This document shows positions 8,422-16,984 of a stretch of 16,984 nt of DNA, piece by piece. Position 1 is the first letter of the stretch; every line of letters begins with the position of its first letter. This DNA comes from a virus (taxonomy: Duplodnaviria; Heunggongvirae; Uroviricota; Caudoviricetes): the IMG/VR virus record IMGVR_UViG_2667527582_000001. One strand, 5' to 3'. The notes beneath the pieces were generated by a model. It was not told the DNA's origin, did not search any database, and saw only the letters and a program-made list of their open reading frames with translations. A program made the translations under genes and the position numbers.

Positions 8422-9020
8422 GATGGCAGTCTCCGATAACAGTGAATTACCTTCACCACCGGAAACGCCAATTTCGCTGGTGGTGAACTGAACGGGGTTG
8501 GCGTAACCGGCGTTATCGGAAACCGGCGCACCTTTCGGTGCCCCCGTCCAGCCCACCATAATTTGGGTGTGCACAGACGCAGACGATAAAAAAGACGCTG
8601 GCGCGTCATATATCGCCGATAACATTTCCAGGACGCCAATCCCGACACCCGCTTTATAAGGTGCCTGAACAGTGTAACGTCCCGGAATGGCAGAATCAAT
8701 GTGCTGGTGGTCCTTCACACTCAACAAAATCACGCCTGAATTTCCACAAAGGACTAAAGCACTCATGCGGGTAGTCTTTGCGAAGATAGATAACGCGCTG
8801 TGTTTCTGGCTCCCAACGAATAACATGGACATAAAGCCCTCTTCCGTCACGAAACCAGCGGTTAAGTTCCTGCACAACTCGCCCCCCACAGTCAGGTAAA
8901 GTTCTCTGTGGTTACTTACAGCCAGGTGATTTGGTAATCTGCATTCATGCCGTAACAACAGGTGTTCAGCGACGCTGACCACCAGCTGTTGCGACAAACG
9001 GTTATTTGCCGTTAAACTGT

Positions 9021-13957: not shown

Positions 13958-14845
13958 ATGAATACTCTTACCAAAGAATGGTTACAGAACACGATTACCG
14001 GAATTGAGTCGATAATAGACGATAAATCGTTTGTATGTAGTGAAATAGCATTCGAAATAGGTGTGGTTAACAACATACTTACCGCATTTAAAATTGCACT
14101 GGCATCGCTGGAAGCAGATCCAGTTGCTTATATTTTCAAACATCCGGCCGGGAAATTATTCTGGGCTTTAACTGATGAAAGCAATAAAGAGCAAGCTGAC
14201 GTTATTCCTGTTTATGCTGCCGCGCCTGCGTCGGTTGTGCCGGATAATGCATCAGAGCCTCTTGCTTATGCTTACAAAGAGCTTACGCCTGAGATTATGC
14301 GCAACCATTTAGCTGTATTCGAGCGATATGGAATAGCCCCAAACGATAGCTCTACCACAATTCAGGCACTGCGAATCGCGCTGGATGGCATAGAGCGGAG
14401 CGGCGCCATGCTTCATGGTGCCGAACCTGTAAGCCAAACTTACAAGTTGCCTCCCCTGTCATCCAACGAAGTAAACGACGCGGCATGGAAATTACGCAAC
14501 ATGCTTACTGAACACGGTCCTCTTAATGGGCGTCAGTTCAACAATCTGAAAGGTTGCTTCTATGAGGCATTAAAGGTCGCAATGCGCAACTATCCGGTAA
14601 CTCCGGATAGTTGGATAAGCTGTAGTGATCGAATGCCAGAAATGGGAGAGCGACAATGCTATGCGTTAGCGGCTGACTTTAAAAACAACTACCCGCCACA
14701 CATCCCCAACACTCAGGTCGGCGTATATGGCGACTGGTTTAATGATGGCGATCCCACTTGGGTTGACGGTGATGGCGAAGACCTGTATCTCAAAGAGGTA
14801 ACCCACTGGATTCCGCTACCAGAACCGCCGCAGGAGGTGAAGTGA
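13958..14845 (+). CDS. Hypothetical phage protein with a C-terminal DUF551-like segment, 295 aa
   Basis: C-terminal WISCSDRMPEMGERQCYALA...THWIPLPEPPQ resembles the DUF551 pattern as I recall it. Tight spacing to neighbours. Confidence 0.55.
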   Translation: MNTLTKEWLQNTITGIESIIDDKSFVCSEIAFEIGVVNNILTAFKIALASLEADPVAYIFKHPAGKLFWALTDESNKEQADVIPVYAAAPASVVPDNASEPLAYAYKELTPEIMRNHLAVFERYGIAPNDSSTTIQALRIALDGIERSGAMLHGAEPVSQTYKLPPLSSNEVNDAAWKLRNMLTEHGPLNGRQFNNLKGCFYEALKVAMRNYPVTPDSWISCSDRMPEMGERQCYALAADFKNNYPPHIPNTQVGVYGDWFNDGDPTWVDGDGEDLYLKEVTHWIPLPEPPQEVK

Positions 14846-15417
14846 TGAACAACTTAATGATCGACCTTGAGACGATGGGGAAAAATAAGGATGCACCGAT
14901 CGTTTCCATTGGCGCGGTGTTCTTCACTCCAGAAACCGGAGACATCGGACAAGAATTCTATACGGTTGTTAGCCTGGAAAGTGCTATGGGGCAAGGAGCT
15001 ACACCTGACGGCGATACCATCCTGTGGTGGTTGAAACAAAGCCCTGAAGCACGAGCTGCAATCTGTATTGATGATACTTTGTCGATCAGCGATGCTCTCT
15101 CAGAACTAAATCATTTCATTAACCGGCACGCAGACAATACGAAATATTTAAAAGTCTGGGGTAACGGAGCCACCTTCGACAACGTAATTTTACGTGGAGC
15201 TTATGAGCGAGCAGGACAAATCTGTCCGTGGGCATACTGGAATGACCACGATGTACGCACGATCGTTACGCTTGGGCGTTCCATCGGATTCGACCCCAAA
15301 ATGGACATGCCTTTCGATGGCGAACGGCACAACGCCATGGCTGATGCCCGTCATCAGGCAAAATATGTTTCCGCTATCTGGCAGAAATTAATTCCTGCCA
15401 CCAGCACAGAATTATGA
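14845..15417 (+). CDS. DEDD-family 3'-5' exonuclease (DnaQ-like fold), 190 aa
   Basis: MIDLETMG (Exo I, D-x-E), FDNVIL (Exo II-like) and HNAMADARHQA (Exo III, DEDDh-type His). ATG at 14845 overlaps the upstream TGA, with GGAGG 7 nt upstream. Confidence 0.7.
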   Translation: MNNLMIDLETMGKNKDAPIVSIGAVFFTPETGDIGQEFYTVVSLESAMGQGATPDGDTILWWLKQSPEARAAICIDDTLSISDALSELNHFINRHADNTKYLKVWGNGATFDNVILRGAYERAGQICPWAYWNDHDVRTIVTLGRSIGFDPKMDMPFDGERHNAMADARHQAKYVSAIWQKLIPATSTEL

Positions 15418-15453
15418 TTTTCCCGGGTGCAGCCGGTTTTGATGGAGAAAATT

Positions 15454-15735
15454 ATGAACACCTTGTTTTTACTGATGGCTGAATTCAATACCCCTAACAT
15501 TGAACTCTCAGCAGTTAGCCAAAAGTACTTTGGCATGAGTCCAGCCACGGCAGAAGCAAAAGCAAACGCTTGTAAGTTGCCCGTTCCAACATATCGCATC
15601 GGCACATCACAAAAAGCAAAACGTTGCATCAATATTCAGGATCTTGCGGAATACATAGACAAAAGACGAGAAGAAGGACGTATCGAGTGGGAACAGGTCA
15701 GAACAAGCAAACAGAAGGGCAAAGAACATCACTAA
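15454..15735 (+). CDS. Excisionase-like / PrtN-like small DNA-binding protein, ~93 aa
   Basis: Last gene of the early-left operon, where lambda has xis. ATG at 15454 preceded by GGAG at 6 nt; alternative starts at 15427 (GTG) and 15442. Family resemblance is from recollection. Confidence 0.5.
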   Translation: MNTLFLLMAEFNTPNIELSAVSQKYFGMSPATAEAKANACKLPVPTYRIGTSQKAKRCINIQDLAEYIDKRREEGRIEWEQVRTSKQKGKEHH

Positions 15736-15782: not shown

Positions 15783-15956
15783 TCATGCTGCTTTGCGACG
15801 ACGAAGCTTACCCTGCTGCTCTTTACCAGAGACAGTAGCGTGAGTGAACGCATTAGGAGCAGCCTTCATCAGAACTTCAACAGCAGCACCCATACCTGCG
15901 AATGCTTTCATTGTGTCGAACTTAACCTGTGGCTTGGTTGCTTTTTGATCTTCCAT
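15783..15956 (-). CDS. Hypothetical small protein, 57 aa (below the ORF-track cutoff)
   Basis: ATG at 15956 preceded by AGGAG at 7 nt. Translation MEDQKATKPQVKFDTMKAFAGMGAAVEVLMKAAPNAFTHATVSGKEQQGKLRRRKAA is protein-like and ends just before the bidirectional terminator. Confidence 0.45.
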   Translation of the reverse strand: MEDQKATKPQVKFDTMKAFAGMGAAVEVLMKAAPNAFTHATVSGKEQQGKLRRRKAA

Positions 15957-15995
15957 AGAAAACTCCTGAAGTTATACCGAAACAATTCCTGTTGT

Positions 15996-16415
15996 TTACT
16001 CATCATCAATAGATGATACGCAATATTTATTTTTAAATTTAAGGTTCTTTGGCGTAACTTCATCAGAGATATCAAAACCGTCCAGAATTCTATTGAATGT
16101 AGCTTCTGGCATATCATCATGAACAGAAATCTCACCCGATCGCTGCTTTCTAACCATGTTATCCACTCGCCAAATTATAGCTTCAGCGTAAACAACATAA
16201 CTTGGATGCTTGATAAAGCGATGATCACCAGAATTCAAGACGCAAGACGGATCGTGGGGGACACCATCCTTGATACTAGAAATATTAACAACTAAAACAC
16301 AATAACAATCGTTAACGGGGTAATAAACAGGATCATTACAAATCACATGAAGATGATTGCATGGCCCAGTTGGGGCAAGCACAGTTCCTTTCCTGTATGG
16401 CTGATAATCCGTCAT
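15996..16415 (-). CDS. Uncharacterised 139-aa protein, translationally coupled downstream of the Panacea-domain gene (candidate toxin/effector)
   Basis: ATG at 16415 overlaps the upstream stop (ATGA). AT-rich; no family recognised. Confidence 0.55.
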   Translation of the reverse strand: MTDYQPYRKGTVLAPTGPCNHLHVICNDPVYYPVNDCYCVLVVNISSIKDGVPHDPSCVLNSGDHRFIKHPSYVVYAEAIIWRVDNMVRKQRSGEISVHDDMPEATFNRILDGFDISDEVTPKNLKFKNKYCVSSIDDE

Positions 16416-16984
16416 GATAATTGCAAAGAAAATTCCTTAAGTTTCTGAGATTCTTCCATTTTGCCAATTATGCGATTAGCCTCATCCTCGCTTTTACCCT
16501 CACTGATCAGCATTTCTTTCAGGTCTATAGGCTTACGAGAATTGCCAGGATCGTGCCACTCTGGACAAACGCTTTCTAGATGCGTCATATTTGCGAGATC
16601 AAATCGGTTCATATGCCCATACCGAGAATAGATTTCATCTAAAATCCGGATATCTGCACGACTCAATTCATCAAAGACCTCGTCTGCATCCATTTCCCTC
16701 GGATCTGAACGCAACGATACATTATGCCCGTTCGTCTCTATCAAGTTGTACCAGTAGTCACCAATGCCTTCAGCCTTACCGCGAATCAAGTTCAGCGTAT
16801 TCGACATGACTGGTCCAAATTTCATAGAGTAAAGGCTATCTTCGCCGATCATCCTGCCATGCTTCAAAATCGACTGGCGGTTAGACAGATAGAGCAACTT
16901 CATCAATTTCAGATATGCCATGCGCCCACCTCGCTTAAGAAGTAGGTATGCAGCCATTTGAGCTACTTTTTCTTCGCAAAACAT
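16412..16984 (-). CDS. Panacea-domain (DUF4065, GepA/SocA-like) antitoxin-like protein, 190 aa; its ATG is the last codon of the window
   Basis: N-terminal MFCEEKVAQMAAYLLLKRGGRMAYLKLMKLLYLSNRQ...MKFGPVMSNTLNLI fits my recollection of the Panacea core (LKLxKLLY ... W/FxGPV). AT-rich. Upstream control region is outside the window. Confidence 0.6.
   Translation of the reverse strand: MFCEEKVAQMAAYLLLKRGGRMAYLKLMKLLYLSNRQSILKHGRMIGEDSLYSMKFGPVMSNTLNLIRGKAEGIGDYWYNLIETNGHNVSLRSDPREMDADEVFDELSRADIRILDEIYSRYGHMNRFDLANMTHLESVCPEWHDPGNSRKPIDLKEMLISEGKSEDEANRIIGKMEESQKLKEFSLQLS

Follow-up and report, generated by a model that had tools for sequence, protein, structure and literature searches.

At the edge of an Escherichia coli prophage, three open reading frames (ORFs) encoding 190, 139 and 57 aa occupy the minus strand at positions 15783–16984 of IMG/VR record IMGVR_UViG_2667527582_000001, a 16,984-nt stretch of DNA referred to here, at its full length, as the window. 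Do these genes form one functional unit, and what would such a unit do for the phage that carries it? The original prediction, made from the letters alone, proposed a candidate toxin–antitoxin (TA) or defence cassette of three genes, in which a Panacea-domain antitoxin is followed by a novel toxin. The analysis described here indicates that the locus is very probably a type II TA cassette of the PanAT class, formed by the first two genes (panA and panT) and carried as swappable cargo beside the attachment (att) site of a lambdoid prophage that integrates at dusA. The coordinates of the features are collected in Table 1.

The panA–panT pair

The 190-aa protein, PanA, matches the Pfam family PF13274 over residues 27–137 with an E-value of 2.2e-19 and a score of 70.9 bits against a cutoff of 25.7, and the Panacea (DUF4065) signature that had been recognised from the letters was thereby confirmed by a profile search. 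PanA has no extra N-terminal domain, and residues 138–190 form a C-terminal extension past the Panacea domain. The ATG of panA is the exact end of the window; at an identical chromosomal locus (L001), none of the 26 in-frame codons between it and a TAA upstream is a start codon, and PanA is therefore complete at 190 aa. In RefSeq, it is named 'Panacea domain-containing protein' (WP_000458584.1). A single-sequence AlphaFold2 (AF2) model of PanA is of low confidence, with a predicted local distance difference test score (pLDDT) of 42. In the clustering at 90% identity, PanA (190 aa), PanT (139 aa) and a 232-aa 'DUF4065' entry, P0079, were grouped together, which seems to be an artefact of clustering or gene calling where the genes overlap.

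The stop codon of panA overlaps the start codon of panT by an ATGA, as originally read, and this arrangement is widely conserved. A genome scan for PanT loci yielded 32 loci from different genera, two of which are contigs too short to judge the neighbouring gene. Of these loci, 30 have a PanA homologue as the immediate upstream neighbour of PanT in the same orientation, hence 30/30 of the informative ones, from Enterobacterales to Alphaproteobacteria; because it is conserved in all informative genomes of different genera, the pairing is far beyond chance. In a junction table of 31 loci, including two E. coli copies, ATGA occurs in 20 and TAATG in 2, and in all but one of the 31 the spacing between panA and panT falls within −4 to +62 nt; the exception, at −142, results from the start codon chosen by the script. 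The predicted antitoxin-then-toxin order and tight coupling are supported. All upstream genes that were checked are PF13274-positive, namely those of Pantoea, Aureimonas, Yersinia phage YeP1 and Pseudomonas phage Sirocco.

Furthermore, the identities of PanA and PanT to their homologues drop in parallel, from 86/87% in Pluralibacter to approximately 31/31% in a Burkholderiales metagenome-assembled genome. Against the Kosakonia and Pluralibacter orthologues, panA and panT have a nonsynonymous divergence (dN) of 0.09–0.12 with saturated synonymous divergence (dS), and both genes, judged by such comparisons, are under purifying selection.

Temperate phages of Escherichia, Yersinia and Pseudomonas also carry the pair, PanA being upstream of PanT in those that were checked, and PanT homologues are also present in Vibrio and Klebsiella phage records. 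In Sirocco, the PanAT pair (L040, 929–1884) adjoins the portal and terminase genes of a P2-like phage, a portal-adjacent position that we take to be a known defence hotspot of P2. The PanT ORF of Sirocco (1486–1884, 132 aa) is unannotated in GenBank, where an overlying minus-strand ORF of 44 aa is given instead.

Assignment of PanT to cluster T6

PanAT systems were defined by Kurata et al. (2022, PNAS; PMC8832971), who described 88 toxin clusters. In the entries found in Dataset S1 of that paper, cluster T6 is labelled by HHpred as RNases of the EndoA/PemK/MazF family, the antitoxin comes first, the overlaps are mostly −4/−1 and the PanA is of the 'noNTD' type. Its members there include Proteus, Pluralibacter, Pantoea septica LMG 5345, 'Yersiniaceae 2016Iso4' and Salinivibrio socompensis, and the T6 pair of P. 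moraviensis (PanT WP_083201923.1, PanA WP_083354365.1) is marked 'TA' and flagged 'NotPhage'. The P. moraviensis PanT is toxic, is neutralised by its PanA and was recovered with it in a PanA pull-down, and it selectively inhibits the incorporation of 35S-Met, i.e., protein synthesis, and not DNA synthesis (PMC8832971). The same entries include two from E. coli, one in T1 and one in T3, the latter a membrane toxin; an E. coli T6 pair is apparently not sampled among them.

By sequence relationship, PanT belongs to this published cluster, because close homologues carry accessions listed there and the listed overlaps are reproduced. Two proteins that Dataset S1 places in T6, WP_101821906.1 (profile E 1e-58, 57% identity to PanT) and WP_025672779.1 (profile E 3e-46, 49% identity), are such homologues, and the overlaps of −4 and −1 given in that dataset recur at the loci of Pantoea septica LMG 5345 and Chimaeribacter 2016-Iso4. 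On the antitoxin side, PanA shares 49% identity with its Sirocco counterpart, which starts with MIFSEQKVAQ, the same N-terminus as reported for the validated P. moraviensis PanA; the MFCEEKVAQ of the present PanA matches it. No Pseudomonas entry was found when the T6 member of Salinivibrio served as the search seed.

The pair resembles the T6 systems as published in several features: a standalone 'noNTD' Panacea protein comes first, the toxin has approximately 130–140 aa with a −4/−1 overlap, it lacks a CDD/Pfam match and has a MazF/PemK-like structure, and the N-termini of the PanA proteins agree. However, the E. coli pair is prophage cargo, whereas the P. moraviensis pair is flagged 'NotPhage'. 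Of the original proposal of a PanAT-like module with a novel toxin, the two-gene module with its order, coupling and accessory position has stood, but the novelty of the toxin has not: PanT falls into a cluster already published and has a MazF-like predicted fold. The 139-aa protein is a new member of a T6 family described in 2022, not a new toxin, and no new class of system is involved.

Predicted fold and conserved residues of PanT

PanT has no significant Pfam, NCBIfam or PADLOC match, in agreement with the first impression of a protein without a placeable motif, although it can now be placed in T6 by accession, and its predicted fold is MazF-like. Its homologues, of approximately 130–150 aa, occur throughout Enterobacterales, Vibrio and Shewanella. 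An exhaustive profile search collected 2,703 representatives (at 50% identity) with E ≤1e-3, 929 of them with E ≤1e-10, all of which are single-domain proteins of similar size. PanT is such a single-domain member of the T6 family, which is without a Pfam model or a solved structure. It contains no hydrophobic segment, and a membrane toxin comparable to the PanT of the Shiga toxin-producing E. coli (STEC) O31 strain (cluster T3) was rejected on that ground.

The N-terminus is conserved in the family as MTxYxPYRKGT, with P6, K9, G10 and T11 nearly invariant. In RefSeq, the PGAP annotation starts PanT at a GTG (16380–16382, codon 12), giving a protein of 128 aa (WP_014640052.1). The 11 residues cut in this way reach into the beginning of strand β-1 (residues 10–16) of the PanT model. 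The ATG at 16415, which gives 139 aa, is the better call, because the removed residues are conserved across the family and extend into that strand.

An AF2 model of PanT based on 54 homologues has a pLDDT of 90.1 and a predicted template-modelling score (pTM) of 0.84. In Foldseek comparisons of this model, the best 50 matches in the PDB are all MazF, and those with viral models comprise PemK-like proteins and endoribonucleases. The modelled structure thus has the MazF/Kid type of SH3-like barrel. Like MazF and Kid (PemK), PanT is small and soluble and is the second gene product of a bicistron coupled to its antitoxin, and a homologue of it inhibits translation. However, there are significant differences between PanT and these toxins. 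The identity is 7–16%, without a match to PF02452, and PanT is longer by approximately 25 residues and carries a helical extension at its C-terminus. A conserved His/Asp/Cys set stands in place of the canonical catalytic residues, and the antitoxin is a Panacea protein in place of the MazE/Kis (AbrB/SpoVT-type) antitoxins.

In the widest set of PanT homologues, the conserved residues, polar and other, are H21, D55, C58, H65, S72, Y76, G113 and S117. PanT may have an active site of His/Asp/His(/Cys) type, unlike that of canonical MazF. A zinc site formed by H21, H23, C26, C58 and H65 was also considered, and this idea is weakened by the distribution of two of these residues: H23 and C26 are conserved among closer relatives only, are not conserved in distant ones, and C26 is replaced by Met in the PanT of Sirocco.

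Proposed mechanism and contrary evidence

On the PanAT interpretation, PanA would bind PanT directly and keep it inactive. If PanA were lost, degraded or triggered, free PanT would arrest translation, acting most probably as an endoribonuclease with sequence specificity, and cell growth would stop. The pay-off for the phage may be an abortive-infection-type exclusion of competitors or the stabilisation of the prophage. The toxicity of PanT and its neutralisation by PanA would follow from the homology with the P. moraviensis pair, for which both were validated; the ribonuclease chemistry of PanT, as well as the trigger and the biological role of the E. coli PanAT, are what we infer.

Several results weigh against this interpretation and in particular against a MazF-type toxin. 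The family model PF02452 (PemK_toxin) does not match PanT at E-values up to 1 and matches one of 72 PanT relatives, with E 0.11. Profile searches against the PDB with two alignments found nothing, and an hhalign comparison of PanT with E. coli MazF gave a probability of 0.3%, i.e., no signal. The conserved H21, D55, C58 and H65 appear to differ from the canonical Arg/Thr pair of MazF, so that the ribonuclease chemistry is only putative. The 48% identity between PanT and the PanT of Sirocco is a proxy for the validated P. moraviensis toxin and not a direct comparison with it. In addition, PADLOC 2.0 models match none of PanA, PanT and the 57-aa protein at E-values up to 1, and a literature search by accession and by the topics Panacea, prophage and defence returned no study of the E. 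coli pair. Finally, some phage genes adjacent to PanA are not toxic, as in the phage-borne E. coli pair that the consulted entries of Dataset S1 place in T1 (PMC8832971).

A replaceable cargo block at the prophage end

Both Escherichia phage SKA5 and many E. coli chromosomes match the region at 99.9% identity. In the chromosomal copies, a truncated dusA fragment lies approximately 250 bp past the PanA start and is followed by DUF2713, zur, yjbJ, dinF and lexA, whereas in the phage genome an integrase takes the place of dusA and the host genes beyond panA. This places the cassette in a lambdoid prophage that integrates at dusA, with xis on one side and the att site on the other, and the position at a prophage edge that was originally proposed is correct. 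The excisionase-like neighbour is also genuine, with profile matches to PF11112 and to an excisionase family of phage proteins (Table 1). The terminator between the two convergent units had been described as bidirectional; the minus-strand hairpin has its T-run, but the stem read on the plus strand is followed by a run of only four T.

Homology with sister prophages that have other cargo breaks at L001 8270/8271, which corresponds to 15969/15970 of the window, 2 nt upstream of the Shine–Dalgarno (SD) sequence of the 57-aa ORF, and it resumes at L001 9479. Because alignment breakpoints flank it, the panA–panT pair together with its upstream region is a discrete, replaceable block of 1.2 kb. A promoter-like TTGACC-17-TAAACT at L001 9440–9412, upstream of panA and outside the window, is the putative panAT promoter. 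A short palindrome, TTGACCATGGTTAA (L001 9427–9440), overlaps the putative −35 element; it could be an operator, but this is one weak match. No RNA family in the cassette was matched by Rfam, and an RNA antitoxin was rejected.

The whole cassette is present in 205 of 5,426 complete E. coli genomes (approximately 4%), and the xis end with the 57-aa ORF in 565. Where PanAT is missing, as in the prophages of O157:H7, O111 and others and in phage mEp460, the slot holds one gene for a 177-aa protein instead. The predicted accessory slot is therefore real, with the 1.2-kb PanAT block alternating with a cassette of approximately 0.8 kb. The 177-aa protein (L036 3954–4487, minus strand; WP_000956557.1; phrog_4350, E 2e-103) has no Pfam, NCBIfam or PADLOC match and could be a candidate exclusion or defence gene.

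The third gene stands apart from this block. The 57-aa ORF begins 39 nt after panT and encodes a protein with a pI of 10.2 and a basic C-terminus, RRRK; the good SD sequence noted for it is present. It is found with different upstream cargo in approximately 360 E. coli genomes, including O157/O111 prophages, and in phage mEp460; among the PanAT loci, it occurs in those of E. coli only and in none of the other 28. The GC fraction is 0.386 in panT and 0.433 in panA against 0.484 in the rest of the window, so that the AT-rich composition ascribed to the cassette holds for these two genes, but not for the 57-aa ORF, whose 0.483 is that of the backbone. The common backbone upstream of its ATG amounts to approximately 13 nt only, and the ORF must therefore be transcribed by read-through from the preceding cargo; it is probably co-transcribed with the cassette. 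This ORF is thus a conserved gene of the phage backbone, outside the TA module, and the idea of a functional three-gene cassette has to be given up.

Elsewhere in the window, the Rv2179c-like and DUF551 genes are accessory genes typical for a lambdoid early region, and two RNAs were found in the prophage regulatory region at the level of the Rfam gathering threshold (Table 1).

Table 1. Features of the window
Feature	Position	Strand	Description
panA	16412–16984	−	190 aa, standalone Panacea (DUF4065) protein, antitoxin candidate; PF13274 SocA_Panacea
panA stop/panT start	16412–16415	−	ATGA overlap, read from the sequence; translational coupling
panT	15996–16415	−	139 aa, soluble MazF/Kid-fold toxin candidate; PanT cluster T6 member
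1.2-kb cargo cassette, part in window	15970–16984	−	runs approximately 193 nt past the window end
57-aa ORF	15783–15956	−	phrog_2741, E 8e-36; SD AGGAG at 15963–15967, 6 nt before ATG
Intrinsic terminator	15764–15739	−	11-bp stem, 6 GC pairs, T-run; closes the minus-strand unit, common to the convergent xis
PrtN-family excisionase gene (xis)	15427–15735	+	PF11112, E 4e-23; phrog_1300 'excisionase', E 8e-40; convergent with the cassette
Rv2179c-like 3'-5' exoribonuclease-domain gene	14842–15417	+	PF16473, E 1e-74
DUF551 gene	13958–14845	+	stop overlapped via GTGA by the Rv2179c-like gene
isrK Hfq-binding RNA	8588–8664	−	RF01394, 61.5 bits; adjoins the C4 antisense RNA
C4 antisense RNA	8476–8563	−	RF01695, 82.8 bits

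Alternative explanations

The alternative that survives best keeps the two genes as a pair and assigns them a dedicated task: the Panacea protein would sense an infecting phage and release the MazF-fold toxin, so that the locus would be an abortive-infection system comparable to CapRel(SJ46). Ernits et al. (2023; PMC10440598) found that a standalone Panacea neutralises its toxin directly and proposed the domain as a sensor; in the same paper, the antitoxin part of CapRel is structurally related to PAD1, which accompanies Panacea in some PanA. CapRel(SJ46) resembles the present pair in that it is prophage-borne and has a translation-blocking toxin; however, it consists of one polypeptide, its toxin is a toxSAS and it has a proven capsid trigger, whereas here there are two proteins and a MazF-fold candidate toxin. 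The recurrence of PanAT in temperate phages, its variable slot at the prophage end, where it alternates with the 177-aa gene, and the position next to the portal gene in Sirocco fit an anti-phage role without proving it. The cargo slot fits an addiction or stabilisation module equally well, no PADLOC defence model matches the proteins of the cassette and a literature search turned up no phage-challenge experiments with T6 PanAT. A dedicated anti-phage function is possible and is advanced only tentatively. A more specific version, in which T6 PanT is a mechanistically distinct MazF-fold branch (His21/Asp55/Cys58/His65) and the pair is an abortive-infection system with a Panacea-sensed trigger, is unlikely as it stands.

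The same barrel could also belong to a gyrase poison of the CcdB type or to another effector that is not a ribonuclease. PanT has no sequence match to PemK/MazF, and its conserved His/Asp/Cys set is unlike the catalytic residues of MazF, as such an effector would allow; but every MazF/Kid structure outscores CcdB in the comparison with the PanT model, and the validated T6 member inhibits protein and not DNA synthesis (PMC8832971), which makes this explanation improbable.

Another improbable explanation, with a slightly poorer standing, is that the two genes are a non-toxic phage pair with some other function, whose TA-like layout misleads. The T1 precedent of a non-toxic E. coli PanA neighbour and the lack of any literature on the E. 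coli pair in a search by accession would favour it. Against it stand the place of PanT in a cluster with a validated toxic member, a predicted fold that is a toxin fold and the strict pairing of PanA and PanT across phyla.

It is very improbable that the pair works as a type VI system like SocAB of Caulobacter, in which the Panacea protein would be a ClpXP adaptor that has the toxin destroyed without sequestering it. The Pfam family is named for SocA, and both antitoxins carry the same SocA_Panacea domain; the NCBIfam equivalog SocA_antitoxin (NF047745), however, gives PanA 14.4 bits (E 0.022) against a cutoff of 190. SocB, a sliding-clamp inhibitor whose antitoxin SocA is a ClpXP adaptor, belongs to T10 and not to T6, and stable PanA:PanT complexes were pulled down for a T6 member, which indicates type II neutralisation (PMC8832971).

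Least credible is a three-component system with the 57-aa ORF as a small membrane effector or regulator, which the shared strand, the short gap, the common terminator, the good SD and the dependence on transcription from upstream cargo might suggest, and which was rejected on the distribution of this ORF beside other cargo, its absence from PanAT loci outside E. coli and its backbone GC.

Significance

PanAT is common putative TA cargo of E. coli prophages, to judge from its share of complete genomes and its presence in the inducible phages SKA5 and Lys8385Vzw, and E. coli is the model organism in which PanAT assays are trivial. Pfam has no entry for the large T6 PanT family, whose E. coli gene is mis-started in RefSeq, with 128 in place of 139 aa. 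If T6 PanT does form a distinct branch of the MazF fold, the His21/Asp55/Cys58/His65 constellation could give it a different chemistry or a different target. Meanwhile, the slot with two alleles beside the dusA att site provides a natural comparison, in which a possible phage exclusion by PanAT can be set against a possible stabilisation of the prophage.

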